From an uncultured virus (IMG/VR IMGVR_UViG_3300021093_006163) (taxonomy: Duplodnaviria > Heunggongvirae > Uroviricota > Caudoviricetes), in the IMG/VR virus record IMGVR_UViG_3300021093_006163: a DNA stretch of 64,000 nucleotides, one strand, 5' to 3'. How positions within the stretch are numbered: the stretch's first letter is position 1; each line of letters starts with the position of its first letter. A program made the position numbers and the translations under genes. The notes beneath the pieces are model-generated. The model did not search any database, was not told where the DNA came from, and saw only the letters and a program-made list of their open reading frames with translations. Below are positions 1 to 20,048 of the stretch, in pieces.

Positions 1-232
1 CGATGATGAGGAAGCCCTTCGCCTCCCCCATCAGCCTCTTTGTCGTCGCGTTGTCGTACGAGAAGTCAAGGACGACGACATTCTTACCCTTCACGTCTGG
101 GGGTGGCTCACCGTACTTCGCAGCGTGGTACTCCGACCTGTCACCGAGGAGCTTCCAGGCCGAGTAGGCTGCGCCAAAGCCGTCGGTGCAGTTTGCGTGG
201 TAGATTACAAGGTCTACGCTATGAGGGTCCAT
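1..232 (-). CDS. DHH-family phosphoesterase (NrnB/DHHA1-like), 3' end outside window
   Basis: Not in ORF track. Manual translation from ATG at 232 (overlapping the tdk stop, TAATG) gives MDPHSVDLVIYHANCTDGFGAAYSAW...VVVLDFSY...FLII, matching the YHxxCxDG and DF motifs of this family. Confidence 0.75.
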   Translation of the reverse strand, partial: MDPHSVDLVIYHANCTDGFGAAYSAWKLLGDRSEYHAAKYGEPPPDVKGKNVVVLDFSYDNATTKRLMGEAKGFLII

Positions 233-804
233 TAGAAATCCTGCACACGATTGTGGTGATGCCAGCACTTTGGCTCATAGAGCTCTGCACCGCCGATTGC
301 GATCTCGCTCAAGTCTTCGACTTTGCGTGCTGTGAAATACGCATCTGCTCCACACGTGGTGCAAACAGCAGAGCATTTCTCAACATGAGTCGCCCAGGGC
401 AAGAGCTCCTTTATCTCATCAAAAACATTGCAAGATGCTGACATCTCAATCGAGGAGATCACAACAGTAAATCCCGTTCGGTATAAAGAAATCAGAGCAT
501 CTGCAACGCCATCAATTAGAAATGCCTCATCGACAGCAATAACATCGGGGCGTTTGTCTTGTGAAGTAACAATCCTGAGAATGTCTTCACCTTTGGAAAC
601 GTTGATTGCTGGTATTTTTGCACCGTTATGTGTGCAAATCTCACTTTCAGCGTATCTGTCATCGAGCCCAGGCTTGAAAGCAAGAATTTTTAGACCCTTA
701 TATCTGAACCTATCGACAAGAGCAATGAGCCGTGTTGTCTTAGACCCCATCATAGGACCAGTAAAAACATAGAACGCAGGATTGATCATTTGAGCTTCCA
801 CCAC
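232..804 (-). CDS. tdk: thymidine kinase (likely start at 789, MINPAF)
   Basis: GPMMGSKTT P-loop, VDEAF Walker B, CxxCG zinc site, IGGAELYEPKC motif. Confidence 0.93.
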   Translation of the reverse strand: MVEAQMINPAFYVFTGPMMGSKTTRLIALVDRFRYKGLKILAFKPGLDDRYAESEICTHNGAKIPAINVSKGEDILRIVTSQDKRPDVIAVDEAFLIDGVADALISLYRTGFTVVISSIEMSASCNVFDEIKELLPWATHVEKCSAVCTTCGADAYFTARKVEDLSEIAIGGAELYEPKCWHHHNRVQDF

Positions 805-1781
805 TTTAGAGTCCTCTCAAGTCCGTCCCAGAACGTGACCTTTGGTACATATCCAAAGTCACGCTGAGCAGCGCTGTAATCTCCTAGCGTGTGCATTACG
901 TCTCCTGCGCGCCACGGCGCGTCGACTATATTAACATCTTTGAACAGGTTTCGCAGGAACTCGAGAATTTCTCGATTTGTGGTCCTCTCTCCGCAGCAAA
1001 CGTTATAACACTCCCCCGAAAAAATTCTGTCAGAAAAAGCAGAAAGAACATTGGCGTCGACGACGTTCTCAACATAGCACATATCACGAGATTGACTTCC
1101 GTCTCCATCAGATCGCAGAGAGCGACCATCAACTATCGCATTGCACCATGCAGACACTGCTGTCGAGTAAGGAGAATCTCCAAGCTGTCCCGGGCCAAAG
1201 ACGTTAAAATATCTAAGAAGCACAACATCAAGCTGATATAGTGAGCTAAAAAGTCTAGAAAAGTCTTCAAGGCAGGACTTTTGAAGTGCATACGGTGATT
1301 TTGGATTTTTAGGCTCATTCTCAGAAGTTGGCAGATTCTCGGCTCCTCCGTAAACAGAAGAAGACGAAGCAGCAACAACACGCCTGACATTTCCTACACA
1401 AGCACTCAAAAGCTCAACAGACTTCATAAGATTTTCGTCCGTTGTCTCAACAGGATGCTCCACCGAGAAAGAGACACGTGGTACTGCCGCCTGATGGAAA
1501 ACTACATCATAATATTTTTTCTGGATTCTCGACAAAATCACAGGAGAGGCAAAATCGTTTTCAATGACCCAAACCTGGGTGTCGGGTCTTTCGTGATTCT
1601 GAGATTCATAGATTTCTATCAGATCTCCGATAAATGTTCTTACATTCAATTCTGATAAATTGCTTAAAAATCCGTTTGTCATGTTATCAACTACATCGAC
1701 AGTGTGGCCTTCAGAGACAAGCCTTTTTACAAGATTAGATCCGATAAATCCGGCTCCGCCGGTGACAAGTACATGTGACAT
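786..1781 (-). CDS. NAD-dependent nucleotide-sugar epimerase/dehydratase (extended SDR)
   Basis: TGGAGFIGS, ASSSSVYG, YALQK (YxxxK), LRYFNVFGP, GDGSQSRD. Confidence 0.92.
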   Translation of the reverse strand: MSHVLVTGGAGFIGSNLVKRLVSEGHTVDVVDNMTNGFLSNLSELNVRTFIGDLIEIYESQNHERPDTQVWVIENDFASPVILSRIQKKYYDVVFHQAAVPRVSFSVEHPVETTDENLMKSVELLSACVGNVRRVVAASSSSVYGGAENLPTSENEPKNPKSPYALQKSCLEDFSRLFSSLYQLDVVLLRYFNVFGPGQLGDSPYSTAVSAWCNAIVDGRSLRSDGDGSQSRDMCYVENVVDANVLSAFSDRIFSGECYNVCCGERTTNREILEFLRNLFKDVNIVDAPWRAGDVMHTLGDYSAAQRDFGYVPKVTFWDGLERTLKWWKLK

Positions 1782-1818: not shown

Positions 1819-2691
1819 CTACGGGATGATGTGCGCACAATTTAGATTTACTCGCATCTTAATGCCTCTTTGATTGGCACCAATCAGTGATTGCGCCTTA
1901 AATCCGATGTGAACAAGAGCATCAAGATCTATTTTCAAATTCTTCGGTACGTTGGTTGACCTGCACGTGACATCGAGAATGTCGTGTTCTGGTCTGTGAA
2001 CAAATCGAACATACGATATGCAGCTTGAATTTGCGGTGATAAACCTTCTTGATCCAGCAGCCTGACCAGATTCAAGCTCTTTTACGATCCTTCCCATAAG
2101 ATCGTCGTTGATCTGCCTATAGTATTCCTCTTCACCCGGTACTTCGAGAGTGCTTGGTCCAAGATCATCAGACTGAGATGCAGTCACTTCAAACTTCAAA
2201 TCAAGGGATTCATTTCGCCCTGTGGAAGCAAGCGCATTCTCTGCGTATTTTGCCAGCTTTTCCGTGTTCACAAATTCTCTGCTGCAAACAATATCACGAA
2301 TAGCCTCAGGATCGGGCGCCGTCTTGCATACAATCACAGAAGGATGGTCTCTCAGCGCCAGAGATTGCGCATTGAATTCTTCCCACGTGGTCCGTAGTGA
2401 ACCAAGGTCGTGCATCTCATCGCCCCTGGCAGCAAACCGCGCTTCGACTGTGCTCCACTCCGGTGCAAGAAAGACGACAATATTGTTCAAATCATCGAGG
2501 AATCGATGAAGCTCTCCGGCCTCGCGGCTATTGTCCCGACCAAAGATCTTTGGGTACACAGCACGACTGATGTGACCTCGATCTCGGATGTCATACCTAA
2601 AGTTTGTCGACTTGTGGAGTTGACAGTAGAAAGTTGATTTTCCTGAGAGATCGCAACCCTCGAGCACGATCTGCCTTGTTGGTAGCCTCAT
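1819..2691 (-). CDS. dNMP kinase-like domain fused to a truncated thymidylate-synthase-fold domain
   Basis: N-terminal LEGCDLSGKST and DRGHIS; C-terminal SRR...SC...RSTNV...D...AH aligns by eye to ThyA SRR/PC/RSCD/N/TH motifs. Confidence 0.65.
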   Translation of the reverse strand: MRLPTRQIVLEGCDLSGKSTFYCQLHKSTNFRYDIRDRGHISRAVYPKIFGRDNSREAGELHRFLDDLNNIVVFLAPEWSTVEARFAARGDEMHDLGSLRTTWEEFNAQSLALRDHPSVIVCKTAPDPEAIRDIVCSREFVNTEKLAKYAENALASTGRNESLDLKFEVTASQSDDLGPSTLEVPGEEEYYRQINDDLMGRIVKELESGQAAGSRRFITANSSCISYVRFVHRPEHDILDVTCRSTNVPKNLKIDLDALVHIGFKAQSLIGANQRGIKMRVNLNCAHIIP

Positions 2692-5600
2692 ACCTGAATC
2701 TTCCTCATCTTGTTGTTGTTTGTGGAGAATCCCCAGTTCGGATCCTTGCTGACCTCTGCGATGTAGATCTCATAGTGGTTCAGCGGCATCTCACCCCAGA
2801 TCCGCAGGTTGACTGTCTGCATCTCATTATCGCACACCTGGGCACGAATGAAACCCTTGCCGTTCTTGGTCTTCTTTACATTGAAGTCCTTCACCAGGAA
2901 CCAGCAGATCCCCTTCTCGTTGTCGCCAACCTCAGTGATCGGTCCGACCTGTGCCTTTTTGATCTTCGCGATAATGTCCTCGGGGAACATCAGGTCCTCA
3001 CGGGAGGTTGATGTAAGATCGAAGTACATCTTCAGCTTCTCAGATCGAGTCCAGTCAGGAAGATTCTCATAGTTCTCGAACAGCTTCCAGAACGTGACCT
3101 CGGGCTGACGACCTTCCTTGAGCAGCTTCTTCATCTCAGTCTTAGTGTATCCGAACCGGCCACGCCTGAGGATGTCGTAGTTCTTCTCCTCAGTCAAGGT
3201 CGCCAGAAGCTGCCTGTGATTTGTCACCTTTCCAGACTTGAAGTCTTCCAGAGATCGTAGCGCCTCGACACTGCAAAGAGAGGTGAGTGTGGTCTTGTTC
3301 ACCTTTGAGTGCCTCCATGCACCGTCCTCTGTATACAACATGGATTCAATCGAGACATAGGGTCGATTATCCATGATCTCAGCGACAGCAGTCTCACCAA
3401 CACCCTTGATCGAGGATAGAGGTGGAACGAAGCCCTGTAGCTCGTGACTGTACATCCAGACAAGACCCGAGCTGTTAATATCAGGCGGATGGATCTTGAA
3501 TCCCTGCTCCTTGATCTCAGTGGCAACCTTGGCAAGGCCATCAGGATTAGTGTTCTCGGACTGAAGGCAGGTGGCAAGCCACTCCTCCTCGTAGTGCTTG
3601 TGAAGCCAAGCAGCGTAGTAGGAATCGACAGCGTAAGATACAGAGTGCGACTTGTTGAAGCCGTAAGCTGAGAATGCCTCGATTGTCTCGTAGAGCTCCG
3701 TAGCATCCTTGACGGACATACCGTTCAGATTGACCGCGCCATCAACGAACCGTTTGCGCAGATCCTCGCGTTCCTTTGCCTTCTTCTCATTCATGTCAAG
3801 GGACTTCTTGACCAGTGTCTTACGCATCTGGTCAGATTCGCCTGGATTGAATCCAGCAAGCTTCTGTGCCAAGAGCATGAACTGCTCCTGGTAGACGACG
3901 AATCCGTGCGTCGGACCAAGCACATCCTTCAGAAGCGGATGTTTGTAGGTTGCAAGGCCCTTGTTCTTGACCTCGACGTACTTCTTGTGGACGCCTGCGG
4001 CGAGAGGGCCCGGACGGTAGATAGCTGTGATGGCAGACAGATCCTCGATCGAGGTGGGCTTTGCCTCGAGGCAGAACTTGCGAGCACCGCTGTTGGTGAA
4101 CTGGAAGACCTGAGTGAACCGGCCCTCGTGGTAGACGTGCTTCCAGACATCCTGATCATCCAGCTCATTGTAACGGATGTTGAGGTTCTTGTCGAAGAAG
4201 TCCTTGACCTGCGCAAAGGTCGGATCCTTGATGCCATGCCGCGTCTGGAGGACCATTCGAATGCAGTCCTCGACCATCTTCAGAAGCGAGAGACCAAGGA
4301 AGTCGAACTTGAGGAAGCCGTTCTCCTCGAGATGCCGGAAGTTCATGCCCTCAGACCACGGTGTCTGGATCTCGCCGCGAACTGAGATGACCGGCATATG
4401 GTCCTCAAGCTTTGGGCAGATGAGAACACCGCCAGCATGTCGACCGATCGACCTCGTCTCCATGAAGAGCGACTGGACCTGTTCACAGAGCTCCGGATGC
4501 TTCTCCATGAAGATCTTGTACTTCTCAGAGTACTTCATGCAATCAGCGTGCGATAGGACGTAGGTGCTCTTTTCCTCGTGGTCACCCAGTGCCCTGTGCA
4601 TGACGTCATCCTGCAGCGGCCCAGTGACCTCGTTCACCTCCTCGAATGGAATACCGTGGAACTTAGCGATGTCCTTGATCAGGGACTTCAACTTCAGAGT
4701 GTTGAAGTTCGAGACCGGAACAACGGAGTCCTCACCAAACAGCTTGCGCGCCTCATCGATCAGGACATCACGATCACCGACGTCAGTGTCGATGTCGGGC
4801 CACGCGACCTTGTGGCGACCGAGGAACCTCTCCCAGAGGAGGTCGTACTTGATCGGATCGACCGATGTGATGCCGAGGACGTAGTTGACCAGAGATCCTG
4901 CACCCGATCCGCGGCCAGGACCGATTAGGGTCCGATGCTGCGCGCGGTCGAAGACGAAGTAGAGCGTGAGGAAGTAGTTCTCAAACTTGAGATACTTGAT
5001 GTCATCAAGTTCCATCTTCAGTCGTTCAACGTACTCAGGCTTCGTGTGAAGACCGAGCTCAACAAGTCCTTTCTTGCACATGTCAAGGAGCTGGTTGAAA
5101 GCCGTCTGCTCAGGCTTGTTGAAGCTCGGGAGCTTTGCAGAAGAATCGAAGGTGACCTCCTCGCACTTTTCCCACGCAATGTCATGAGTCCGCTCGATCG
5201 ACTCCTTGACCAGGAGCTCAGTGTCCCTGTAGAAGTCATGCTGGTCCTTGTGAGCCAGGTACTCATCCCACATCTGCTGTGCATTCTTGGGATACAGCTC
5301 GCACTTGAGCTCATCAAACGTGGGAAGCACCTGCTTCTGCATGTCATCAGATCGACCGCCCATGCGGCCCAACTTCTTGTAGAGCTCACGCGCCTGCCAG
5401 ACATTCGGGCTGTAGTAATGAGAGTCCGCAGTGGCGATGGTCTTAATTCCGGTGCGCTTTGAGAGCTCAATCAGGTGTTTGTTCGTCGTGTGCTGGATGT
5501 CGAGCTTGTTGAATTGAAGCTCAAGGAAGAAGTTATCAACACCGACAGCATCGACAAATTTGTCAGTGTGATTCTGGAGCTCACGCTGAATCTGCTCAAA

Positions 5601-6271
5601 AGGCTTCTTCAGCGCCTCGCCTCGGATTGAAGTAGAGGCAAGCAGACCACCGACACAAGCTGTGGAGACAACGAGTCCCTCGCTGTGCTGCTTGAGCATG
5701 TTGTAGTCGATGCGAGGAAACTTGTAATAACCCTCGACATAGGACCGTTTGACAAGATTGAACAAGTTCTTGAGACCAGTTCGATTCTTGGCAAAAACGA
5801 CCAGATGATACCGCCGCTTCCATTCATCAGCATCATCAGCATCTACGGTCTTGGTCTCCTCCTCGTCCTCGACAACAAGGCCGCCGGTCACCTCCTCCTC
5901 GGCAAGGATGTCAACCTGTTCGGGCTTCCCCTCCTCGTTCTTGGCGCGCTTCGCCTCGAAGTGAGCAGCACGCTTCTTCTCCCAGTCGAGAAGGGACGGA
6001 ACGAAGTAGAACTCAACACCGTAAAGCTGCCGGTACTTTCGGCCCTTACCCTTTATCTTCTTGGAATAGGTGTGTGCATGAGCGAGACCATTGCCGCTGC
6101 CGTGATCGGTCAGCGCCCAAGCATCCATTCCGTTCTGGAGGACGAAGTCGATGTGACGATCAGGATAGCCAAGTCCATCATTTACAGCATTCAGGAGAAG
6201 CCGGAGTGCGCATGCAAACCGACAAATCGGTTAGGCGCACAAACCGGCTTCTCAGAGCTCCAGTTTGACAT
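2688..6271 (-). CDS. dnaE: DNA polymerase III alpha subunit; main ORF 2688..6128, N-terminal PHP motif on a separate frame at 6191..6271
   Basis: ALTDHG, GPGRGSGAGSLV, PDIDTD, KFDFLGL, YGFNKSH, C-terminal OB fold. Upstream 26-codon ORF ends FVGLHAHSGFS-stop. Confidence 0.93.
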
Positions 6272-7583: not shown

Positions 7584-8018
7584 TTACTCAATGTGACCGT
7601 AGTAGGGCTCAAAGAGAGGCTTCCCTGCCTCAACGGAGCGCTGCAGGTAATCGCGGAGCTCGTCGTAGGATGTGGTGACCTTGACACCGGACTGTGCCAG
7701 CATCAGGTTGAAGTTGCCGGTGAGCCCCTGGGCGAAGTAGACGATCGGAACATTGGCATTGTATGCCACGCCGGCCTCAAAGATCGTCCCCATGTCCTTG
7801 TCACGGGTGTTGCACAGGACGAAGTCTGCAGTGCGAATGTGATCGACATTGCCCTTGAACGTGTCCTTCTGGACATCGAGCGGCGCGCTGGGCGGGCAGA
7901 TGAAGATCTTGCGAGGTGAGGCCACATTTAGGCCGAGCTCTTCGAGCAGAACTTCCAGTGCCTCGACCTCTTCGAGTGCCTTGGGGGTGAACCATCCAGA
8001 TGCGAGATAAACCTTCAT
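7584..8018 (-). CDS. nucleoside 2-deoxyribosyltransferase / nucleotide N-hydrolase family (likely start MKVYLASG)
   Basis: KVYLASGWF, ADFV, DMGTIFEAGVAY, NLML motifs. Confidence 0.82.
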   Translation of the reverse strand: MKVYLASGWFTPKALEEVEALEVLLEELGLNVASPRKIFICPPSAPLDVQKDTFKGNVDHIRTADFVLCNTRDKDMGTIFEAGVAYNANVPIVYFAQGLTGNFNLMLAQSGVKVTTSYDELRDYLQRSVEAGKPLFEPYYGHIE

Positions 8019-8019
8019 G

Positions 8020-8970
8020 TTATGCTTCCTTATTGTTCCTGTAGTTAGTAACGATTGTATCAATGTCTGAGAGGACCTCGTTCCAGTGCTTGCGGAAGTG
8101 AGGAACGCCACCACCAGTTCCGTTCATGTCGTCACGAGTCGCCTGATAGATCGTGTCATCTGGGTGATAGGTGAGGTGCTTCTCACTGTCATCATCGGGC
8201 CAGTAGAGGTTGGTACCCGTGCCATTGCGGAACGTCTTGATGTAGTGCCAAGCAGGCTCGCGAAGGTTGATCGCAACGTGTGCCTCAGGGAAGACTCGGA
8301 GGATCTCACGTGCCATGAGAGCCGCGAGCATGTTGTCCTCCTCGGGCTGGATCTGCTTGTCCTGGCGCTGCTTGATGAACATGAAGGCATCCCTGATGTT
8401 CATGCGCATGTAGTAGAAAGTCTCGAGGCACTTCGGGAGGATATGACGAGCATCCATGAGAGAGATCTTCTGGGAGTCGACCATATCAACGTAAAGTGCC
8501 TTTGCATCCTCTACGTGATTCTTCCAGCGCTTGTAGAACTCCGGGCTATTCTGGATAGAGCCTGGAACAAGGCTGCGCTCGTGAGAGAGCCAGCGGTCAC
8601 CTGTGCACTGTGCAGCAAAAGATCCAGCACGATGGCGGATGAGATGAGTCACAGTTTGTGTATCAATTCCGCCAACAAGGAACGTGAGACCAATCAGCTC
8701 CATTGCTGCCGGAAGCGCACGACCTGCAAAGACATCCTCCAGGGTCTTTGAGAGATCCGCATCAGAAGCCTCAGCATAGGGAACATGCTTGTCAGCCCAT
8801 GTGGACTTTACGAAACAATAAACGGCCTGGCGGATTGTCTTTGGATCAGGGCTGTCTACGAGCTCGAGCTTGAGTGCATCGAGGCTGTTGATAAACTCAG
8901 TTGTAGGCCGCTCGTCGAAACGAATGGCCATGGGAAGAGTAATCGGTTGAAGATCAAGATTTTGAGGCAT
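8020..8970 (-). CDS. divergent ThyX-family flavin-dependent enzyme
   Basis: HLIRHRAGSFAAQC (RHR motif) and DARHILP; Cys at the usual Ser position. Confidence 0.72.
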   Translation of the reverse strand: MPQNLDLQPITLPMAIRFDERPTTEFINSLDALKLELVDSPDPKTIRQAVYCFVKSTWADKHVPYAEASDADLSKTLEDVFAGRALPAAMELIGLTFLVGGIDTQTVTHLIRHRAGSFAAQCTGDRWLSHERSLVPGSIQNSPEFYKRWKNHVEDAKALYVDMVDSQKISLMDARHILPKCLETFYYMRMNIRDAFMFIKQRQDKQIQPEEDNMLAALMAREILRVFPEAHVAINLREPAWHYIKTFRNGTGTNLYWPDDDSEKHLTYHPDDTIYQATRDDMNGTGGGVPHFRKHWNEVLSDIDTIVTNYRNNKEA

Positions 8971-8979
8971 TAATTTCTC

Positions 8980-9897
8980 CTATCGAAGATTATCGATGAT
9001 TTTGGTCAAGTTTTCAACTAGAATCACACCCTCTTGACGCTGGAGTGATTTATTGTAGGGCTGAACGGGGCTAAAGGTCTTGAGGCCGTGGGAGGCAAAC
9101 TCTGCTGCATGCTTTGGCGAGTCATCAACGCAAAACGCAACGTGCCCAGCAAACTTTGACTGAATGATCCAGAGGAACTTCTCTCCGCTGAAAGCAACGT
9201 CATCAAAATAGAGACCTGAATTATGAAGCCAGCGTGCTGTGTCAAAAAGACAAAGAGGATTATCTGCAGGACGTGCTGTGAGGATCTGAACCCAATATCC
9301 GAGGCGCTGAAGCTCATGTGTGAACTCGGCGGCGTCACTGACTGCAGGAATGTCGCGAAGCTTGCGCTCTGCTATGAACTCTTTAAAGAGGCTCTCTGTG
9401 TTATGTCCTAGATTTTGGGCTGCTGATGCAGCATAATATTCCGGACAGTCATACGAGATTACTGCTCCCTTTGTCTCAGCAAGCCACTCAAAGAAAGCGC
9501 GTCTAAACTCTGCAAGGACATCATCCATGTCAAGGATGACTACTGGACGACCATCCCAGGTCTTCTTTGAGAGATTGTGCCTGAAATGAAGGTAGGCATC
9601 CTTGTCCTCGAAGGCATCAATGAACTCTCTCTCATTGATGTCCCAAACATTCATGATTGCCACAAGGTACCTGATCACGTCAATGCTCTCATACAGGATC
9701 TTTGTCCGATCTGGCATCTTGCGATCCATCCGGTGATCCTTGAAATTGATCGATGACACAAGATCTGATACTTCAGAATGCAATTCAAGAGCGAATGATT
9801 TTGTCATCTGCTCCTTTTCTGCATCTGTGAATGTCCTACTATCGAAGAAAAGATTAGAGAATGCACGCTGACATTGCAGTATCTCTTTTAGGGTCAC
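8980..9897 (-). CDS. all-alpha NTP pyrophosphatase (dUTPase/MazG-like) fused to HAD 5'(3')-deoxyribonucleotidase
   Basis: LHSEVSDL...YESIDVIRY in the N-terminus; LDMDDVL, ILTARP, VDDSPK in the C-terminus. Confidence 0.78.
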   Translation of the reverse strand: MTLKEILQCQRAFSNLFFDSRTFTDAEKEQMTKSFALELHSEVSDLVSSINFKDHRMDRKMPDRTKILYESIDVIRYLVAIMNVWDINEREFIDAFEDKDAYLHFRHNLSKKTWDGRPVVILDMDDVLAEFRRAFFEWLAETKGAVISYDCPEYYAASAAQNLGHNTESLFKEFIAERKLRDIPAVSDAAEFTHELQRLGYWVQILTARPADNPLCLFDTARWLHNSGLYFDDVAFSGEKFLWIIQSKFAGHVAFCVDDSPKHAAEFASHGLKTFSPVQPYNKSLQRQEGVILVENLTKIIDNLR

Positions 9898-9906
9898 GTT
9901 AGTCCT

Positions 9907-10278
9907 CTAGTATTTGCTCTTAATCCTATCGTGAATAATCCTGTCTTTATTAACGTATGCCTCAAAAAGCTCATCTGGGGTAATGCCCATGATGATGAGG
10001 AGGGAGAGAAAGTAGTTGAAAGAGTCAACCATCTCCTCCTTGAAGGCAGCTCGATCAAAATCTCGAATCTCTGTCTGTCGATGAGACTTTGCATTCTTCA
10101 GCTCTTGCACCGCCTCAAAGACCTCCTCGACACCTCGAAGTGCAAGATCTCTGAGATGCTGCTGCGTAGCCTTGTTTGTCAGATCAACAGGCATCTCTGG
10201 ATAGACATCTGGGACCTGCTTCTGTAGAGCCATCATAAAGGCTCTGCGAAGGTCAAACATCTGATCGAGCTTGTCCAA
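9907..10278 (-). CDS. all-alpha dUTPase/MazG-like NTP pyrophosphatase
   Basis: VEEVFEA...KSH...EEMVDSFNY...YVNK...R motif. Confidence 0.8.
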   Translation of the reverse strand: MDKLDQMFDLRRAFMMALQKQVPDVYPEMPVDLTNKATQQHLRDLALRGVEEVFEAVQELKNAKSHRQTEIRDFDRAAFKEEMVDSFNYFLSLLIIMGITPDELFEAYVNKDRIIHDRIKSKY

Positions 10279-10529: not shown

Positions 10530-11333
10530 TTAATTCTGAATTTCTGGGATCCAGAAGGTAGTCCGTCCGTCCTTCGTCGTCTCTCTCTTTACCTCTCTAC
10601 CTTCTGGATCCTTGAGCTGATTGTAGACTGCAAAGCGGCGACTGTAATCTCCCTTTTTTCCATCGAATCCTGAAAATGTGTAAATGGTAGCGCCACCAGT
10701 CTCATATGACTTCCTAATTACATTTTTAATCACAAAATTGAGAGTTTTCAACTCATTTTCAGATAAAGAACTAGTCATTCTATGCGGGCTAAGTCTACTA
10801 AAATACAAGCATTCAGACTTTAGATAGTTTCCTACTCCGCTGATTATAGACTGATCCATAAGAACTTCTGCTAGCGTTCTATTCTTCTTCTTAATAGATC
10901 TAATAAATACAGAATCTAATACATCCTCAGCAAGCATGTCTGGGCCTAAAGTCTTCAGCTTCTCTGCCAGTGAATCTTTTTTGTCAATTAGTTTTAACGT
11001 GCCGAAGTTTCTCATATCATTGAAGTAGATCCTTCCTCCGTCGTCCAGATCAAACTGAATTCTGCTGTGCTTTCTCTCGACAGCTGACCAGCTTCCGGTC
11101 ATTCCTAAAGTATTGAAAACGTGCTTTCCATTTTCAAGACTAATGAAAATGAACTTTCCCTTACAGCCAACCTCAGAAACTTTAATATTTAGAAAACGAT
11201 TCAGATTTTCCCAACCTTCAGGGTTCTTCTTTGTGTAGCGACCAGATAAGATCTGCACATTCACAATGCCTCTGTCAAGGATGTAATTTCTAATTCCATC
11301 AGACACAACTTTTACTTCAGGTCCTTCAGGCGT
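10530..11333 (-). CDS. mutM: Fpg/Nei-family DNA glycosylase; probable ACG start at 11333
   Basis: In-frame PEGPEV upstream of the ORF-track start; KGK, LGMTGSW, NDMRNFG, LGPD, DQSIISGVGNY (H2TH), zincless finger GRTTFW. Confidence 0.88.
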   Translation of the reverse strand, partial: TPEGPEVKVVSDGIRNYILDRGIVNVQILSGRYTKKNPEGWENLNRFLNIKVSEVGCKGKFIFISLENGKHVFNTLGMTGSWSAVERKHSRIQFDLDDGGRIYFNDMRNFGTLKLIDKKDSLAEKLKTLGPDMLAEDVLDSVFIRSIKKKNRTLAEVLMDQSIISGVGNYLKSECLYFSRLSPHRMTSSLSENELKTLNFVIKNVIRKSYETGGATIYTFSGFDGKKGDYSRRFAVYNQLKDPEGREVKRETTKDGRTTFWIPEIQN

Positions 11334-11763
11334 AGCACACCTCCTTTTTTTGTTGAGAATTTACCCACTTCCAGTAATTCTTTAGCGCGCCATCCTTCGG
11401 TTCAGGAATTCCTGCCCAGTTGTGGCGACAGAAAATCTCATATGCTGCAGCTGCATACTCTCCGACACCATGAAGATCTTTCGGCTCAGACCCTTCCCAG
11501 GAAAGATAGTCAGATGACATCTTGATTAAGGTCTTTGCACGTCGCTCTCCAAGTCCCAGATTCTTTACAAGTTCATGCACATCATCAAATCGAGCACATG
11601 ACGCTTGCTTTGCACTGGGCCATCTATCAAAGAAACGCCACATGATTGGCTCAGCATCGACGCGCTTGGTTAGATTGCAGAAGATACAAACAACAAAAAT
11701 ACGCCAGGGGTCATGCTGGACGTGCTCTTGAATGAGATTATATGGCGAATGCGGTGCGTGCAT
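11326..11763 (-). CDS. MBD4-like HhH-GPD DNA glycosylase
   Basis: SPYNLIQE..HDPWRIFVVCIFCN, LHGVGEY and PKDGALKNYWKW resemble the MBD4 catalytic domain. Confidence 0.8.
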   Translation of the reverse strand: MHAPHSPYNLIQEHVQHDPWRIFVVCIFCNLTKRVDAEPIMWRFFDRWPSAKQASCARFDDVHELVKNLGLGERRAKTLIKMSSDYLSWEGSEPKDLHGVGEYAAAAYEIFCRHNWAGIPEPKDGALKNYWKWVNSQQKKEVCYA

Positions 11764-12386: not shown

Positions 12387-13019
12387 TCAATAGCCAAATG
12401 CCTCAATTGTGTTTCGGAACGGATTTCCTGGGATTTCTTTGACCTGCTTTAGCATGTCCTCTGCGAGCCAGCAGATCTCGCGCTGAGCATCTGGCTTTAG
12501 TCGAAGACCGAGAAAGTGAGCAAATGATCTCCAGTTGAACATTATGTCCATTGTGATCTGATTGCCGTATGGAAGGTAAAATCGAGCAGATTCCTTCGCG
12601 CGCTTACGATCCATCCCACTATCCACCAGTCGCTTTAGGGTATCATGGTAGCGCATGAGAGCGTCCTCCATGAACGCGATGTAACGTGCCTGCTCCTCTA
12701 GCGACCAGTCCTTGGGCAGATAATACTTGTCGTCCTTGAGCTCTTTATAGCGGGAGCTTTCTGCATTAACAGATACGCCAACTCGATGCTTGATGACATG
12801 TATATGTGTAGCCACATCGGTTGTCACAAGAAAATGCAATGAACTCTTCTCAAAAACCGTGTGGTGCCCATTGTCGGCAAGCATTTTCAAAAGCTGCGGC
12901 ATTCTACCACGCTTCTCGTCTGAAAGATCTCGGGATGTAGATGTCCACGCGGACAGCGCATGAGTCTCATCTGAGCCATACCAGCCTGTCAGTTCTACCT
13001 TATTTTCTTGAAATGGCAT
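12387..13019 (-). CDS. thyX: flavin-dependent thymidylate synthase
   Basis: GHHTVFEK, KHRVGVSVNAESSRY, ESARFYLP, NWRSFAHFLGLR..AQREI. Confidence 0.9.
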   Translation of the reverse strand: MPFQENKVELTGWYGSDETHALSAWTSTSRDLSDEKRGRMPQLLKMLADNGHHTVFEKSSLHFLVTTDVATHIHVIKHRVGVSVNAESSRYKELKDDKYYLPKDWSLEEQARYIAFMEDALMRYHDTLKRLVDSGMDRKRAKESARFYLPYGNQITMDIMFNWRSFAHFLGLRLKPDAQREICWLAEDMLKQVKEIPGNPFRNTIEAFGY

Positions 13020-13224
13020 CCCTTATTTGCTCCCTTGCATATTTGTCCCAAACTATCTCAAATAACCACTGAAGAAGCGTGAGTGACATACCCGATACAA
13101 GAACAATCATTGATGATGCAACAATGTCTCCTGTAAAAAGGTATGTCACCCACGCTCCAAACAGCATTGAGAACACTCTCCAGACGACTGTCTTGATAAG
13201 CAGCTCAAAGCTGTTTGAGTTCAC
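13000..13224 (-). CDS. small membrane protein (DUF2061-like)
   Basis: LIKTVVWR...YLFTG...FEIVW pattern; two hydrophobic segments. Confidence 0.65.
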   Translation of the reverse strand: MNSNSFELLIKTVVWRVFSMLFGAWVTYLFTGDIVASSMIVLVSGMSLTLLQWLFEIVWDKYAREQIRDAISRK

Positions 13225-14246
13225 TATGATGCCTCGAGAAGGAGGCGAGTGACAACGTAGGGATCAATGTTTGCGCATGGACGCCGATCCTCAAAATACC
13301 CGCATCCTGCTTTTGCAACGTGCAATGGAATTCTGATAGAGGCACCCCTATCTGAAACACCGCACCTAAACTCCTTGTATGAGCAGGTCTCATGCTGCCC
13401 AGTTAGTCTCTGTTCAATGCCATGCCCATAATGGGGGATGTAGTCATCATGCAGCCTTCTCAGTATGCTGATGATTCGATCAATCTCTGTCATTCCTCCA
13501 GACTCGTCACGAGTTGCAGCAGTCGACCAATTCGTGTGAGCACCAGCACCATTGAGCTCTCGAACGGGCTTTGGATCAAGCTTGGCGTTGATGCCATGCT
13601 TCTCTCCGATCCTATACAAGAGCCACCTTGCCAGCCACAGATGATCAGAAACTTTGACAGGATCACCTGTTCCAATCTGAAACTCCCACTGGCCGGGCAT
13701 AACCTCAGCGTTTAGGCCGCAGATCAAAAGCCCTGCATCCATGCATGCCTTCATGTGGTCCTCAACCAGATCACGCCCACACACTTCATCAGCGCCAACC
13801 CCGCAGTAATAGGGTCCTTGCTGCGGAGGATACCCGCCATCAGGCCACCCAAGAGGAGTGCCACCTCTGAAAAGCGTGTATTCCTGCTCGATTCCGCACA
13901 TTGGAGCCTTGCTGCTCTTCCTCTCCATCATCTTGACAAGATGGTGACGTGTGTTTGTCCTGTGAGGAGTTCCGTCTGCATTATAGACTTCACAAAGAAC
14001 AAGAATTGCAGGCCGATCTGCTGATCTTATTGGATCCTTGCAGAAAGAGACAGGAACAAGAATGCAGTCGCTCTTGTCTCCGGGTGCCTGGCCAGTTGAA
14101 GAGCCGTCAAAGGTCCACTGAGGAATATCAGATATTCCTAGGGAATCGCCCCCAAACTGAAAAATTTTTGTCTTACTTCTTAGTTTAGAAGTGGGAGTCG
14201 TTCCATCTATCCAAATGTATTCTGCTATTACGTTTAACATTTTCAC
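13224..14246 (-). CDS. glnII: glutamine synthetase type II
   Basis: AEYIWIDG, FDGSST, GIEQEY, NAEVMPGQWEFQ, NGAGAHTN, RLTGQHET, EDRRP. Confidence 0.93.
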   Translation of the reverse strand: MKMLNVIAEYIWIDGTTPTSKLRSKTKIFQFGGDSLGISDIPQWTFDGSSTGQAPGDKSDCILVPVSFCKDPIRSADRPAILVLCEVYNADGTPHRTNTRHHLVKMMERKSSKAPMCGIEQEYTLFRGGTPLGWPDGGYPPQQGPYYCGVGADEVCGRDLVEDHMKACMDAGLLICGLNAEVMPGQWEFQIGTGDPVKVSDHLWLARWLLYRIGEKHGINAKLDPKPVRELNGAGAHTNWSTAATRDESGGMTEIDRIISILRRLHDDYIPHYGHGIEQRLTGQHETCSYKEFRCGVSDRGASIRIPLHVAKAGCGYFEDRRPCANIDPYVVTRLLLEAS

Positions 14247-14884: not shown

Positions 14885-17800
14885 CTATGAGCACTTGGAA
14901 TATGAGCAATTCTTGCAGGAAAGACAGCCTTCCTGGTACACAAGCTCGGTATTTCCACATTGCGGGCACCCCTTCTCTGATGATGCAGTTCCATCCTTGA
15001 TGTACCCCTTCAGCACTCTTGCAATGACTCTTGCAAAAGAGAACATGTCGCTGTTCTTGTCCTTCTGGAGCTGCTCAACAACGTAATGAAGAGGAACCTC
15101 ATGACGGAGCGCAAGAGACACTGTCCGAGAGAATGCGCCCTGTGTGGGATTATCAAACAGGTTGATGATGTCCTTAAAGACGAGATTCTCGTCGTCGCCA
15201 ACAGGAACCTGCAAATTGTACGTGGTTACACCCTCGCGCTTGCCGTTCTTGACAAGAATACCAGACTTATACTTCTTTGGAATCTCAATATTCTCAGGTA
15301 TTCCGCAGAACACCTCGTATGGCTTTCCATCGAGGAGACCGACAAGGACAAGCCAGGATTCTGATGCTTCACCGTTTCGAACATTTGCACGGTGAATATC
15401 ACAGGGAAGAGACTTGGCACGCTTAGGAATGAGCCTTCCATCGTCTACCTTCTTTTCCTTCCTTGACTCATCTGCCTGGACTAGAACACCTGTACGACAT
15501 CCATCCCGGTAAACAGTGAATCCCTTACAACCTGACTTCCAAGCCTTCATGTAGACGTCATTGACGGTCTCACGGGTAGCTGAATTGGGGAGGTTGCAAG
15601 TTTTTGATATTGAGTGATCAACCCATCGCTGCGCAGCTGCCTGGATCTCCACGCTCTTCACCCAGTCGATGTCATTTGCTGTGCTGCCCCAGTATGGGCT
15701 CTCCTGCGGATCCGTTTTACCTGTCACGTCCATCCACTTCTTGAACCAGTGATGGTAGACCGTGTACTCCTGCCACTTATCACCCATCGGGTCTATGAAA
15801 TCAACTCGTGACGCAAAGTCGCCCTGAGTTATCTTCTTTCTGCGCTTGTATGAGAGGAGGAAGGCAGGCTCGATGCCAGATGTTGTCTGTGTGAGAATAG
15901 AAACAGAACCGACTGGTGCTGTGGTGGTGAGTGCGATGTTGCGTCGACCTGTGGTCTGCCACATGTTGCGCGTCTCCGCGCTAAGCTCGCTGACTGCATC
16001 CATGACATTGTTTAGATACCTGTGGTCCTTCTCCTTCTCGTAGTCCCAGACAGGGAATGCTCCGCGCTCCTTAGCCATGACGAGCGAGGAATAGTGTGCC
16101 CACCGCGCCAGGTTGCGGTATATTACCTCTGTCATTTGAATTGAATCGTCGGAGCCGTACTTGAATCCAAGCGCTGCAAGCGCATCACCAAGCCCTGTGA
16201 TGCCGAGACCAGTACGGCGGCCGTTGAGACCGGCGGCTCTGATCTTCGCCCAGAGGTCGCGCTCAATCTTCTTCACGTGCTCAGGCTGCGGGTCACGATC
16301 GATCTTTGTAAGCACTCGATCGACACATTCAACCTCAAGATCGACAAGGTCATCCATGAGACGTTGCGCTGCGTAGACAACCTTTCCGAATCTCTCAAAG
16401 TCAAAGCCGGCATTTCCCGTGAAGGGCTCATTCACGAATGTGGTGAGATTAACAACCATAAGGCGGCAGCTGTCATAGGGACTGAGTGGGATCTCACCGC
16501 ATTGACGACTCGCAAGAATCAGGTCAGCCCTGTTCCTGAACCTCTCGATCTCCTCGCTGCCAACCCTGAAGCAGAAAGTGTGAACATCGTCAACGGTTCC
16601 GTTGTAGACATCCTCACTTCCTGCAGGCTCAACTGAGATTACACGATGGTTGAAGCTCTCGGCAGCGGACTTGAGATCGCTCCACGAGGCGAATCCATTC
16701 TGGGTTCCGATGCGAGGCGAGCATCCAGCCTGCTTGCAAGCAGCCTCCCACTCCTTAAAGAAGGGCATCCTGCTCAGATCGCTGCGAACAGACGTGAACA
16801 CGCTGAGCTGCGCCTGACGCTTCTTTTCACCTCTGGCAGTATGCATCGATCTTAGTGTCGCAGCTCGACGCTGATTCTTTCCAGCTCGTCGATTAGCGTA
16901 GGTGTTGGAGCAAGAATGACTGCAGAAAGAAACCTCGCGTCTGTCATACTCTGACCAGAACGAGCCCTTGCACCACTCACATGTCTTTTCCACGTGAAGC
17001 TCGCCGTTGGTCAATTGCCAGCGATAGCCGTTGGACTCTGCGTGAAGAGCGCGTCGTGCCATACGAGGATCCATGTCGCAGATATCAGAATCGATACCGC
17101 AAGAAATTGCGATTTCATAGCAGGCTTCAGAGAAACTCTTACCACCAAGCCTAAAGTTATTCAGGAAGGTCGGGAAGTTGTTCTCCTTGGCGAACGCCAC
17201 CCAGTCCGAGAGCGTCACGCGTCGATTGATGCTAATCGTCAGCTTCATGATAGCGTCGACGATCGAATCATTTGAGGCTTCGTAGGCACGAGGATTGTTC
17301 ATGCCACCCACTGACTTCGACATTTTTTCAGAGTATTCGGCGAACTTGACGGGGTCTGCCTTGATCTTGAAGATCGGATTATTCTCGCCCTTGATCAGAT
17401 CAGCGTGATAGCGATCATGAGCTTCCTTGCTCATCAATACGAGATTACTCGGATGATTGTTTAGAGAATTGAAGTCAGCGTGATGAATGACCTCATCCTT
17501 TCCAATCTTTTTGCCGTTGAAGTGTTCCCACATAATGCGGTGAGCAGCCTTCCAGGTTCGATTTCCACCACTTCGAATCCAGCTGTAGTCCTGGGATGCC
17601 GTCGCGCGGAGCCCTGGCATTGCCTCATTGAACTTGCCATTGACATGATGAGAGATCCAGAGCGAATCACCGGTGATCAGGTCTTTCACCTCACGCTCAC
17701 TTCCATCGCGCATGATCATCTTGTGATTGCCAGTTGCTCGGAACGAGTGTCCACCCTCGACGGTCACACGATAGATCTGTGCGCTCTTTCCAGTGACACG

Positions 17801-18823
17801 AGGATTTCTCATCGTCTTGATGACAAGCTTACCGTCTTCATCGCATGCGAAGACAGGCACGTCGCTTCCTTCATCTGCGAGCGTCTTGATAGCGACAAAA
17901 CCACGACCATCTGCGACCATGACCTCTGTGTCGCCGGTCACGCAAGGATTCGTGGAGATCGTCTTGTAACCTACATCCCTGTAGTTGTCTACGATGCCAT
18001 TGTTGACGACAGTGTCCCAGAAGAGCGCACCCGGTTCGGCGGAGGACCACGCCGCGTCGACAAACTTGTCCCAGACCTGCTTGGCATTGACAGTCTTTGT
18101 GATCTGTGCACTCTCCACTGGAGCTTCAACGGGCCAACGCAACGTGAAGTCTTCACCGCTCTCGACCGCCTGCATGAACTCGTCTGTGAAGCGGATGGAG
18201 ATGTTCGCACCCGTCACCTTCTTCAGGTCACGCTTGATGTCAATGAAGGTCTCGATCTCGGGATGGCGACAGTCGATTGTGAGCATGAGCGCGCCACGAC
18301 GTCCGCCCTGGGCAACCTCACGGGTGGAGTTGCTGAACCTCTCCATGAACACGCCGATGCCGTCGGTCGTTCTTGCAGCGTTAGTGGTGGGTTGGCCCTT
18401 TGGACGAATCGTCGAAACGTCAAAGCCAACACCACCACGACGCTTCATGATCTGGACTTGTTCCTGATCGGTGAAGAGGATTCCTGCGTAGCTATCGTGA
18501 GGCTGTTCCACAACGAAACAGTTAGAGAGTGACTGGAGCTGGTACGGGTTGCCTATTCCGGACATCGGTGATCCCTGTGGGACGACCTGGGCAAACCCCT
18601 TCAGGAGGTCGTAGATCTCCTCCTCTCCCATCGGGTTCGGGTACTTGGCCTCGATCCTCGCAAACTCCCTTGCCAGACGACGATGCATCTGGTCGGGATT
18701 CGCCTCAAGAAGATCTTCACCGTTGCGAAGTGCATACTTCAAAAAAACGTCAGGAGCTAGCTCATCACCGCCGAAATATTCAGACGTTTCACGAAGCGCT
18801 CTAGCTTTGACAGACTCAGACAT
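14885..18823 (-). CDS. nrdJ: class II (AdoCbl-dependent) ribonucleotide reductase containing an intein
   Basis: LSNCFV, RRGGVG, GGRRGA, TNP/CGE, TAPVGS, GIEP, KGFTVYRDG, C-terminal Zn ribbon; no R2 gene in the window. Confidence 0.92.
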   Translation of the reverse strand: MSESVKARALRETSEYFGGDELAPDVFLKYALRNGEDLLEANPDQMHRRLAREFARIEAKYPNPMGEEEIYDLLKGFAQVVPQGSPMSGIGNPYQLQSLSNCFVVEQPHDSYAGILFTDQEQVQIMKRRGGVGFDVSTIRPKGQPTTNAARTTDGIGVFMERFSNSTREVAQGGRRGALMLTIDCRHPEIETFIDIKRDLKKVTGANISIRFTDEFMQAVESGEDFTLRWPVEAPVESAQITKTVNAKQVWDKFVDAAWSSAEPGALFWDTVVNNGIVDNYRDVGYKTISTNPCVTGDTEVMVADGRGFVAIKTLADEGSDVPVFACDEDGKLVIKTMRNPRVTGKSAQIYRVTVEGGHSFRATGNHKMIMRDGSEREVKDLITGDSLWISHHVNGKFNEAMPGLRATASQDYSWIRSGGNRTWKAAHRIMWEHFNGKKIGKDEVIHHADFNSLNNHPSNLVLMSKEAHDRYHADLIKGENNPIFKIKADPVKFAEYSEKMSKSVGGMNNPRAYEASNDSIVDAIMKLTISINRRVTLSDWVAFAKENNFPTFLNNFRLGGKSFSEACYEIAISCGIDSDICDMDPRMARRALHAESNGYRWQLTNGELHVEKTCEWCKGSFWSEYDRREVSFCSHSCSNTYANRRAGKNQRRAATLRSMHTARGEKKRQAQLSVFTSVRSDLSRMPFFKEWEAACKQAGCSPRIGTQNGFASWSDLKSAAESFNHRVISVEPAGSEDVYNGTVDDVHTFCFRVGSEEIERFRNRADLILASRQCGEIPLSPYDSCRLMVVNLTTFVNEPFTGNAGFDFERFGKVVYAAQRLMDDLVDLEVECVDRVLTKIDRDPQPEHVKKIERDLWAKIRAAGLNGRRTGLGITGLGDALAALGFKYGSDDSIQMTEVIYRNLARWAHYSSLVMAKERGAFPVWDYEKEKDHRYLNNVMDAVSELSAETRNMWQTTGRRNIALTTTAPVGSVSILTQTTSGIEPAFLLSYKRRKKITQGDFASRVDFIDPMGDKWQEYTVYHHWFKKWMDVTGKTDPQESPYWGSTANDIDWVKSVEIQAAAQRWVDHSISKTCNLPNSATRETVNDVYMKAWKSGCKGFTVYRDGCRTGVLVQADESRKEKKVDDGRLIPKRAKSLPCDIHRANVRNGEASESWLVLVGLLDGKPYEVFCGIPENIEIPKKYKSGILVKNGKREGVTTYNLQVPVGDDENLVFKDIINLFDNPTQGAFSRTVSLALRHEVPLHYVVEQLQKDKNSDMFSFARVIARVLKGYIKDGTASSEKGCPQCGNTELVYQEGCLSCKNCSYSKCS
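16502..17944 (-). mobile_element. 481-aa intein with HNH endonuclease in nrdJ
   Basis: Inserted in TNP|CGE; starts CVTGDTEV, block B ATGNH, HNH HHADFNSLNN..NL, block F DVYNGTV, ends SRQ before Cys+1. Confidence 0.9.
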
Positions 18824-18854
18824 TCAATGCTCCCTGGTGTCCATTATACCTGAA

Positions 18855-20048
18855 CTACTTACCGTTAATCTCTTTCCATTTCTCTTTGAGAAGAGTTTTC
18901 ATTGATGTTCCGTCTGCCTTGACCACGTCATTGAGTGACATTTCGTCCGTGTTAAGCAGAGTGAACTTTGACATGGAAGTATCTATCTGCATGGGAAACA
19001 ACATGCCGTCACGACCAGCTCGATTCTTGGCGACAAAGATTCGACCAGCACCTGTTGATTTTTCATTTGGCTTTCTCGAAATTGACAAAACAACGTCGGC
19101 TACCATCGCCTTTCCATAAGCTTCGGACATATTTTCAAGCCCAACGATGTCTGAGTTGGAAGCATCACGATTTGCCTGTGATGCGGTCCAGATCGGGATG
19201 CTCATCTCCATCGACATGTTTCGAAGCTCTTCGTAAACAAGCTTCAATTCATGGCGCAGTGAATCAAACTTTCTTGATGACTTCATAATATCAGCATAAT
19301 CGATAATGACTACGCTTGGAACAAAGCCCTTAAGCAGGAGCTTTTCAATATGGTTTCGTAAAGTCTGGACGGAAGGTGTGCCTGTTGGATATTCTTTGAT
19401 AATCAGGCGACCAAGCTGAGAGTTCTTATAGAAGTCGATGACCTCTTCCTTGCGGTCAATGACATCATTGCTTGGAATGTTGCAGAGATTGGAGTCATAC
19501 CGAAGTCCGACTGCGGACTCCGAGAGTTCAAATGTGTAATGAACAACATTCTTTCCGACACGCAATGCTTCCGCACCCATTTGCACAAGGAAGTGCGAAT
19601 TGTGCGACAAGATATCATTCGTGTAATAAGAGTGAGAAATTGCAACCTGCAGGTCGCACAGACGCTCCACCCTTTTCAGCTTCTCAACTGAGGTAACTTC
19701 TCCTACTCCCTCTCGATCGACAACTTTCGATCCAGGAACCAGGTCAATCACTTTCTTCCATTGCGCAGGCTCTTGACAAAGAATCAGATGGTTATCTGCG
19801 CACTCGATGACCCGGATACCGCTCACTGTGCTAACAGTTACACGATATACCTCATCTTCCTTTGTCCAGCGGACTCCTTCAACTGGGTAGTATCCGTCTA
19901 GAGAAAGAACCTCTACTGGCCAGCTACAGCCCATGTATGAGTCTCCATCAGACGATGTGGGCTTGGCATCACTACTAAATCCAATAGAGTCAAAAAATTG
20001 ACCAATTTGGACTTTTTCATCCAAATCTTCATACTGAATCGAAAGCAT
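18855..20048 (-). CDS. dnaB: C-part of split intein (150 aa) fused to C-terminal half of DnaB/gp41-like helicase
   Basis: ECADNH (block B), DLQV..HSYYTNDILSHN|SHFL; then YTFELSE, IIDYAD, TASQANR, AKNRAG. Confidence 0.9.
   Translation of the reverse strand: MLSIQYEDLDEKVQIGQFFDSIGFSSDAKPTSSDGDSYMGCSWPVEVLSLDGYYPVEGVRWTKEDEVYRVTVSTVSGIRVIECADNHLILCQEPAQWKKVIDLVPGSKVVDREGVGEVTSVEKLKRVERLCDLQVAISHSYYTNDILSHNSHFLVQMGAEALRVGKNVVHYTFELSESAVGLRYDSNLCNIPSNDVIDRKEEVIDFYKNSQLGRLIIKEYPTGTPSVQTLRNHIEKLLLKGFVPSVVIIDYADIMKSSRKFDSLRHELKLVYEELRNMSMEMSIPIWTASQANRDASNSDIVGLENMSEAYGKAMVADVVLSISRKPNEKSTGAGRIFVAKNRAGRDGMLFPMQIDTSMSKFTLLNTDEMSLNDVVKADGTSMKTLLKEKWKEINGK

Follow-up and report, generated by a model that had tools for sequence, protein, structure and literature searches.

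The gene considered here raises the question of what a thymidylate synthase (TS) fold may do when it is cut down to about 150 residues (mini-TS below), carries an Asp at the position of the dUMP-specifying Asn, and is joined to a nucleotide kinase. Modified pyrimidines of phage DNA are known to arise through enzymes of the TS superfamily, whose flavin branch was described only in 2025–26. The gene lies in a window of 64,000 nucleotides, the whole stretch analyzed, from an uncultured virus (IMG/VR IMGVR_UViG_3300021093_006163). An earlier note, made from the sequence alone, had proposed a dNMP kinase fused to a ThyA-fold domain that would either modify dCMP or sense nucleotides. That interpretation is partly supported: the two folds, the conserved residues, and the dCMP-type Asp hold, whereas its regulatory branch and the idea of an NDP-sugar substrate have fared poorly.

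RESULTS

The fusion gene and its family

The gene is real. Its ATG overlaps the stop codon of the DnaE gene as ATGA (Table 1), and the motifs listed in the earlier note are confirmed in the protein: GSRRFI at 213, SSC at 222, RSTNVPKNLKID at 244, and CAH at 285. On the kinase side are a P-loop at 12, DRG at 37, and RGDE at 89.

As a single sequence, the fusion protein gave no match in Pfam and nothing useful in the PDB. Searches by tblastn with the fusion protein, with P0044, and with the mini-TS of Patescibacteria returned zero full-length relatives from 50,697 phage records. A word search retrieved 37 relatives of the fusion protein with 54%–100% identity, and a profile built from 35 relatives matched 567 clusters at E < 0.001 and 67 at E < 1e-30 (clusters at 50% identity). 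The alignment A2 comprises 97 sequences: eight close relatives together with 89 of 91 distant matches of full length (one fragment and one unrelated kinase fusion were dropped). Its members were picked by profile score, the motif not being used as a criterion. Scanning IMG/VR with the motif yielded 61 loci, which fall into 37 groups at 70% identity; all of them are true members, 60 in the long form and one split.

The family profiles match YorR (E 6e-17), T4 gp42 (E 0.003), and AfhB (E 0.005), and the predicted model of the fusion protein has a mean pLDDT of 97.5. Both halves of the fusion, as first read from the sequence, are recovered in the predicted structure and in the profiles. A QueF identity for the family, hinted at by a weak Pfam signal (7/35, best E 0.08), was overruled by the structure.

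In the kinase half, residues 6–150 of the predicted model align with YorR (VIA, Z 12.2–12.4, rmsd 2.8), and the features of the YorR-like and thymidylate-kinase family are present, namely the fold, the P-loop, the DR motif, and the lid Arg. Among the 97 sequences of A2, G12 is kept in 94, D14 in 95, and G17, K18, R38, and R85 in 96 each. A kinase of the T4 gp1 type was found in none of the five records searched.

Table 1. Features of the window and the related cassette loci (coordinates in nucleotides)
Feature	Coordinates	Strand	Evidence
Thymidine kinase; a DHH protein and dCMP deaminase come next in relatives	232..804	-	
NDP-sugar epimerase, directly downstream of the fusion gene	786..1781	-	
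Fusion gene, YorR-like nucleotide kinase and mini-TS fold, 290 aa	1819..2691	-	Conservation, profiles, structure
Mini-TS domain, aa 141–290; R215–R216, C224, R244–S245, N247, D255, H287; without internal subdomain and C-tail	1822..2271	-	
Kinase domain, aa 1–140; P-loop, DR motif, lid Arg intact	2272..2691	-	Residue counts, YorR fold match
DnaE polymerase; stop overlaps fusion-gene start	2688..6128	-	
Nucleoside 2-deoxyribosyltransferase-family protein	7584..8114	-	
Divergent ThyX-like flavoprotein, putative partner, 316 aa	8020..8970	-	Motifs, model, co-occurrence
dUTPase_2-like pyrophosphatase fused to NT5C/HAD nucleotidase	8980..9897	-	
Small dUTPase_2/MazG-like pyrophosphatase	9907..10278	-	
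ThyX of more canonical type, the second in the window; has GHHTVFE and an RHR-like motif bearing SSRY	12387..13019	-	
Patescibacteria cassette, L082	557-4819	-	
Patescibacteria cassette, L081	6972-11303		
Patescibacteria cassette, L083	7015-11305		

A reduced TS fold with a dCMP-type Asp

The best Foldseek match of the fusion model is AfhB of HY126 (9iqu), a dCMP hydroxylase (E 1e-5). Residues 139–290 align in VIA with ThyA (Z 9.7, rmsd 3.4, 143 residues), AfhB (Z 9.6, rmsd 2.7, 145 residues), and MilA (Z 10.4, rmsd 2.9, 143 residues); with T4 gp42 included, the ranges are Z 8.4–10.4, rmsd 2.7–3.7, and 136–145 aligned residues. The TS fold is thus found in the structure prediction, and the conservation of Cys, Arg, and Asp, on which the earlier note had staked its reading, is high. 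In A2, C224 is kept in 90 of 97 sequences (despite a mean column identity of ~23%), R244 in 91, and D255 in 94, together with R215 (91), R216 (82), S245 (92), and H287 (91). The domain profile aligns C224, R244–S245, D255, and H287 with gp42 and AfhB, with C148 and D179 of gp42 in register. Position 177, where ThyA has the Asn that selects dUMP, is thereby occupied by an Asp aligned to D179 of gp42, and the dCMP-type residue noticed at the outset is borne out. On a tree of 252 sequences, a set that takes in motif-selected members, D255 undergoes one change.

In the mini-TS, the Cys is preceded by 85 residues and the His is followed by 3; in two full-length TS homologues, 156 and 168 residues precede the Cys, and 58 and 119 follow the His. 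Missing are ~70 internal residues and the C-tail. Because the structural alignment reaches back to the very start of the TS chains, the domain retains their first helix and strand, and the loss is internal and C-terminal. By the established anatomy of ThyA, this loss takes away the folate pocket. The absence of a folate-binding region, noticed earlier, therefore stands, but not its N-terminal placement. Instead of the full-length gp42-type scaffold with a folate subdomain and Asp169, the fusion protein has Asn247 on a reduced scaffold, and instead of the full-length (~234 aa) flavin-holding domain of the 5-hydroxy-dCMP synthases, it has one of ~150 aa. An E-x-x-Y-Y motif (187–191) sits at the would-be start of the deleted subdomain. 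Its residues E187, Y190, and Y191 are kept in 90, 72, and 82 of the 97 sequences, are without a nameable counterpart, and may form a new active-site wall or a partner surface. In TS enzymes, W80 and Y94 are near C5 (passages of PMC13326640).

Flavin-bound TS homologues make 5-hydroxy-dCMP and are marked by N177D and D169N, with a YorR-like kinase gene nearby (passages of PMC13326640). The fusion protein carries this signature (C146, D169N, N177D). Position 247, the equivalent of 169, is N in 56 and D in 30 of the 97 sequences of A2, and N in 207, D in 95, and E in 18 of a larger set of 334 that takes in motif-selected loci; it changes 37 times on the 252-sequence tree, vs. a shuffled mean of 75. 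With such N/D flips across the family, Asn247 is not diagnostic and cannot name the product. The missing Asp of RSxD, as first described, is an Asn in the fusion protein and an Asn or an Asp in most of the family. Position 247 looks relaxed in a domain without a cofactor pocket. At the L143 position, where the loop register is uncertain, the fusion protein has Asn221 (S 122, D 98, N 57 of 334), whereas the tested 5-hydroxy-dCMP synthases have Glu (passages of PMC13326640).

A divergent ThyX as proposed partner

The model of the ThyX paralogue encoded in the window matches the ThyX fold (E 2e-8). In T. maritima numbering, the RHR motif and R174 are kept (R174 in 26 of 26 paralogues), while H53 is replaced by Leu, S88 by Cys, R90 by Gly, and Y91 by Asp; one paralogue of Patescibacteria has Ala in place of the Cys. 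The replacements fall on residues with published one-carbon roles, S88, R90, and Y91 in methylene transfer and H53 in folate stacking; R174 acts in dUMP activation (passages of PMC8316439 and PMC11940539). The retained R174 suggests a uracil substrate for the paralogue. The two proteins may form a complementary pair, the mini-TS with a nucleotide site and a Cys, and the paralogue with a flavin motif and no one-carbon machinery. Two ThyX genes occur in the window and also in G031 and G494; since the canonical one can supply dTMP, the paralogue is free for another job.

At the record level, the paralogue is present in 36 of 44 records with a mini-TS (41 of the 61 loci, near-duplicates being left out, and three genomes), and the eight misses are fragments 3%–50% complete. 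In the converse direction, a mini-TS occurs in 11 of 45 paralogue-bearing records picked for lacking a mini-TS within 10 kb, a mostly uninformative count since the sequence breaks off <10 kb downstream in 32 of the 34 misses. The pairing is not obligatory: in the jumbo relative L097, the kinase gene (15304–15849) stops after 181 aa and lacks the TS core, and the ThyX paralogue is retained. L097 is a natural deletion control.

The jumbo-phage setting

The window belongs to a large phage with a contractile tail, which has genes for DnaE, ribonucleotide reductase, and RecA as well as T4-like head and tail genes. A genome of ~340–360 kb follows from two related records, one of 91 kb with an estimated completeness of 27% and one of 140 kb with 39%; one relative is complete at 284 kb. 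Within 10 kb of the 61 loci, the families encountered are DnaE (60), epimerase (53), dCMP deaminase (48), thymidine kinase (48), deoxyribosyltransferase (30), divergent ThyX (27), and dUTPase_2 (20). Because the jumbo records share descent, they are counted as one gene context. The dUTPase_2-like/NT5C fusion is a candidate for removing unmodified dCTP.

Other features of these genomes were observed. The N-terminal part of DnaE (~6130–6250, minus strand) is out of frame, the start of the PHP motif lying in another frame; in L001 and L002, DnaE is a single ORF of 1185 aa, and the break in the window is either an assembly error or real. Genes for Fpg-type and HhH-GPD glycosylases (10530–11763, minus strand), found also in G003 and G031, lie just upstream of the pyrophosphatase genes; these enzymes could repair decay products of modified cytosine. 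In this DnaE phage, an HD-domain gene adjoins a short degenerate family A polymerase gene (26314–28051, minus strand; 382 aa, E 2e-5), and G031 too has a PolA-like gene (372 aa). The window contains a glutamine synthetase-like gene (13224–14246, minus strand), inteins or HNH elements inserted into ribonucleotide reductase and between the pieces of DnaB (14885–21240, minus strand), and a homing endonuclease adjoining the capsid gene (51757–53214, minus strand). Of the 61 loci, 45 have a gene like Fe/Mn superoxide dismutase a few genes further downstream (e.g., L047 4585–5277).

Far from the module is a large glycosylation island (L226–L227, at ~125–150 kb of G031, and L012–L013 of G003) with GT2, GT4, GT6, GT10, GT11, GDP-mannose dehydratase, carbamoyltransferase, and radical SAM genes. 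The paired GT4 glycosyltransferases of the jumbo genomes, ~100 kb from the module, are not counted as DNA enzymes, since the tested GT4 matches only unassigned phage glycosyltransferases. As for palindrome avoidance, GATC is at 0.94–0.98 in the jumbo sequences, at 0.46 in 30 kb of Geobacillus phage GR1, and at 0.47 in 24 kb of Bacillus phage G. In G031, TTAA is the most avoided four-base palindrome (0.60; 1.03 in the window), and those containing C are near or above expectation.

Geobacillus phage GR1 and Bacillus phage G

The ThyX paralogue of the window matches a protein of the cultured phage GR1 (OK896991; 44.6% over 97%), which was located through this paralogue and not through the fusion protein. 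The next gene in GR1 encodes a stand-alone mini-TS of 151 aa (hhalign 96%, E 4e-9), and a mini-TS lies directly behind the paralogue in six of six GR1-like loci. Upstream of the pair, GR1 has a deoxyribosyltransferase, an HD hydrolase, a glycosyltransferase, a YorR kinase, RNase H, and a nitroreductase; downstream are DnaE and a dUTPase_2 protein. The nitroreductase is directly upstream of the paralogue in GR1 and in five of the six GR1-like loci, and two genes separate the GR1 mini-TS from the YorR kinase. In mini-TS domains of the GR1 type, Glu replaces the first phosphate Arg, and the Asp is preceded by a gap of one residue.

The GR1 glycosyltransferase belongs to the T4 alpha-glucosyltransferase family (phrog_2888, E 6e-53). 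It matches 440 phage records, mostly T-even agt, and is closest to gp313 of phage G (34.8%). This enzyme is present in 5 of 7 GR1-type records (it is absent from the complete G493), in 0 of 23 jumbo records, and in 0 of 3 Patescibacteria records. No PF00303 enzyme was found in GR1 (one of five records, G492, has one, a ThyA with Asn177), and no other thymidylate synthase in GR1 or G493. With no PF00303 enzyme in GR1, the module is the only candidate found there for making the acceptor base of the glucosyltransferase. The passages searched in the GR1 paper make no mention of DNA modification.

Phage G has a full-length TS homologue (gp319) with the Cys, RSND, and the dCMP-type Asp, and its neighbors are dCMP deaminase, a YorR kinase that carries a fused UDG-like part, and two agt genes. 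The genes gp315–gp319 correspond to L241 12928–16495; gp315 is a YorR-like kinase whose C-terminal half resembles UDG on a motif reading. Two agt homologues are confirmed in phage G in passages of PMC6024577 and PMC13216743, which give no chemistry. The Asp of gp319 together with the two agt genes predicts glycosylated hydroxymethylcytosine in phage G DNA.

A cassette in Patescibacteria

Applied to GTDB, the same motif scan picked out three Patescibacteria genomes. These carry a cassette of six chromosomal genes, which encode a protein with a Rossmann motif and a fused dUTPase_2 part, the ThyX paralogue, a YorR kinase, a stand-alone mini-TS, a UDG-family protein, and NUDIX. Here and in GR1, the paralogue precedes the stand-alone mini-TS by one or two genes. 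The Rossmann match is weak (E 0.06), and the Rossmann/dUTPase_2 gene is shortened in L083, to which the split viral locus (L031) is nearly identical. A dCMP deaminase is absent from the cassette. The cassette is rare: among 401 Patescibacteria genomes, a family-level match to the ThyX paralogue occurs in the seed genome only, with two weak ones besides (E 1e-21 to 1e-23). With PADLOC, 4 of the 12 cassette proteins match, to generic kinase and NUDIX models only, and no model for the mini-TS or the ThyX paralogue was matched among the 12. The cassette may be a defence or self-modification system.

DISCUSSION

A proposed pre-replicative cytosine module

We lean, at slightly better than even confidence, toward the view that the mini-TS is the dCMP-binding, Cys-activating half of a pre-replicative module for C5 modification of cytosine, the other half being the ThyX paralogue. 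Beside the observed folds, residue conservation, and gene co-occurrence, we infer all the chemical steps and the physical contact between the two proteins. The mini-TS would bind dCMP, with Asp255 reading the cytosine, Arg215/216 and Arg244–Ser245 holding the phosphate, and His287 the sugar. Cys224 would add to C6, as in enzymes of the ThyA family. Since the cofactor pocket is lost, the mini-TS would rely on the co-inherited paralogue, which keeps the FAD-binding motif but not the folate or carbinolamine residues, and which would supply an electrophile or reduced flavin. By analogy with AfhB, the most likely product would be 5-hydroxy-dCMP, formed from flavin and O2, to which we give about half the weight; the other half goes to 5-hydroxymethyl-dCMP or a different C5 adduct. 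The fused YorR-like kinase would then phosphorylate the modified product, dUTPase_2-family enzymes would deplete dCTP, DnaE would incorporate the modified nucleotide, and, in some lineages such as GR1, an alpha-glucosyltransferase of the T4 type would add a sugar to the base on DNA. The RB69 kinase shown to act on 5hodCMP is gp1-like (passages of PMC13326640).

The pair is found in three gene contexts: the jumbo phages, the GR1-type siphophages, and the Patescibacteria cassette. We count in favor of the module the TS catalytic set, the near-constant Asp255, the co-occurrence with ThyX and the replaced one-carbon residues of the paralogue, the GR1 glucosyltransferase, the nitroreductase upstream of the paralogue in GR1-type loci, the failure to find a gp1-type kinase in five records, and the helper genes around the dCMP-type enzyme of phage G; against it we count L097, R174 of the paralogue, the variable position 247, the patchy alpha-glucosyltransferase, the gp1-like nature of the RB69 kinase, and the loss of one phosphate Arg in the GR1 type.

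We put forward only tentatively, and with more doubt than belief, a two-protein enzyme drawn from both of the unrelated thymidylate-synthase folds. The Cys of the ThyA-fold fragment would activate dCMP while the rewired ThyX, seated against the exposed side of that fragment, would hand over an oxygen or a carbon carried by its flavin. The pair would replace gp42 or AfhB in a wide clade of jumbo phages and GR1-like siphophages, and would be present in Patescibacteria in a chromosomal cassette with a UDG-like glycosylase. If so, Patescibacteria cells would place a modified base in their own DNA or in their pool of nucleotides.

Alternative readings

The mini-TS could also act alone as a 5-hydroxy-dCMP synthase, with free reduced flavin bound as in AfhB, the ThyX paralogue then serving a separate step of the same module. 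The fusion protein has the published signature, AfhB is its best structural match with a SAH-type His motif and a short tail common to both, and YorR-like kinases adjoin such synthases in DLP3, RB69, and RL38J1 (passages of PMC13326640). We nevertheless hold it to be unlikely: AfhB has 234 aa vs. ~150, the region walling the cofactor site is absent, Asp stands at 169 in one third of the family (Patescibacteria members included), and the L143 position is S, D, or N in place of the Glu of the tested synthases. The chance seems smaller still that the chemistry is on the uracil or thymine side, where the paralogue would modify dUMP from the dCMP deaminase, the mini-TS would interconvert, hydrolyze, or proofread a cytosine-type intermediate, and the DNA would contain modified T or U. 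The near-invariant Asp255 speaks against it, as do the separate ThyX of the jumbo phages, the separate Asn177 ThyA of G492, the same helper genes around a dCMP-type enzyme in phage G, and a Patescibacteria cassette devoid of deaminase. On the other side are the invariant R174, the deaminase in 48 of 61 loci, GR1 and G493 without another thymidylate synthase, and the UDG-like gene of the cassette.

Very improbable, finally, is the regulatory branch of the earlier note, taken here to mean that the TS-fold domain would be a non-catalytic sensor of dCMP or dCTP acting on the kinase or on the ThyX paralogue. Although the cofactor pocket and tail are absent and the domain can be lost from the kinase, as in L097, the Cys is retained at low overall identity, and the domain occurs as a separate protein right behind the paralogue, not the kinase, in GR1-type loci (two genes from the kinase in GR1), which argues against regulation. 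Likewise, an NDP-sugar as substrate of the mini-TS found no support, and sugar transfer is better given to separate glycosyltransferases.

Comparison with known systems

The family represents a smaller, apparently cofactor-less TS branch tied to a rewired ThyX, with at least 67 clusters at 50% identity (E < 1e-30). If the preferred cytosine module is correct, it would give a large clade of uncultured jumbo phages a new route to modified cytosine, with GR1 as a cultured carrier of the split module and of a DNA glucosyltransferase. A literature search that covered, among others, passages of PMC7824862 found no description of the module.

The kinase resembles YorR of Bacillus SPbeta (PDB 2axp/3kb2) and the thymidylate-kinase family in its fold, P-loop, DR motif, and RGDE lid motif, and differs from YorR in being joined to a TS-fold domain. 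The paralogue shares with canonical ThyX/FDTS (T. maritima TM0449) the fold, the RHR motif, and R174, but H53, S88, R90, and Y91 are replaced and its 316 aa include conserved extensions.

With the 5-hydroxy-dCMP synthases, AfhB (PDB 9iqu/9iqc), RB69 gp48, DLP3 gp80, and RL38J1 gp216 (passages of PMC13326640), the mini-TS has in common the TS fold, the Cys, the Asp at 177, the SAH-type His motif, a YorR-like kinase in the cluster, and, in the fusion protein, Asn at 169. Unlike them, it has ~150 aa instead of 234, an Asn169 that is not fixed in the family, a fused kinase, and a ThyX partner, and arabinose genes and a gp1-type kinase were not found alongside it. With T4 gp42 (PDB 1b49), MilA (5b6e), and the phage G cluster of gp319 (whose function is predicted from sequence), the Cys, RS, Asp177, and His are in register, and the helper genes are similar (dUTPase_2 family, dCMP deaminase, kinase, and agt in GR1). 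The mini-TS differs from gp42 and MilA in having neither the folate-binding subdomain nor the C-tail, and Asp169 is replaced in most members. By its size and its cofactor pocket, the mini-TS falls outside both the gp42 and the AfhB types, although its way of working would be similar.
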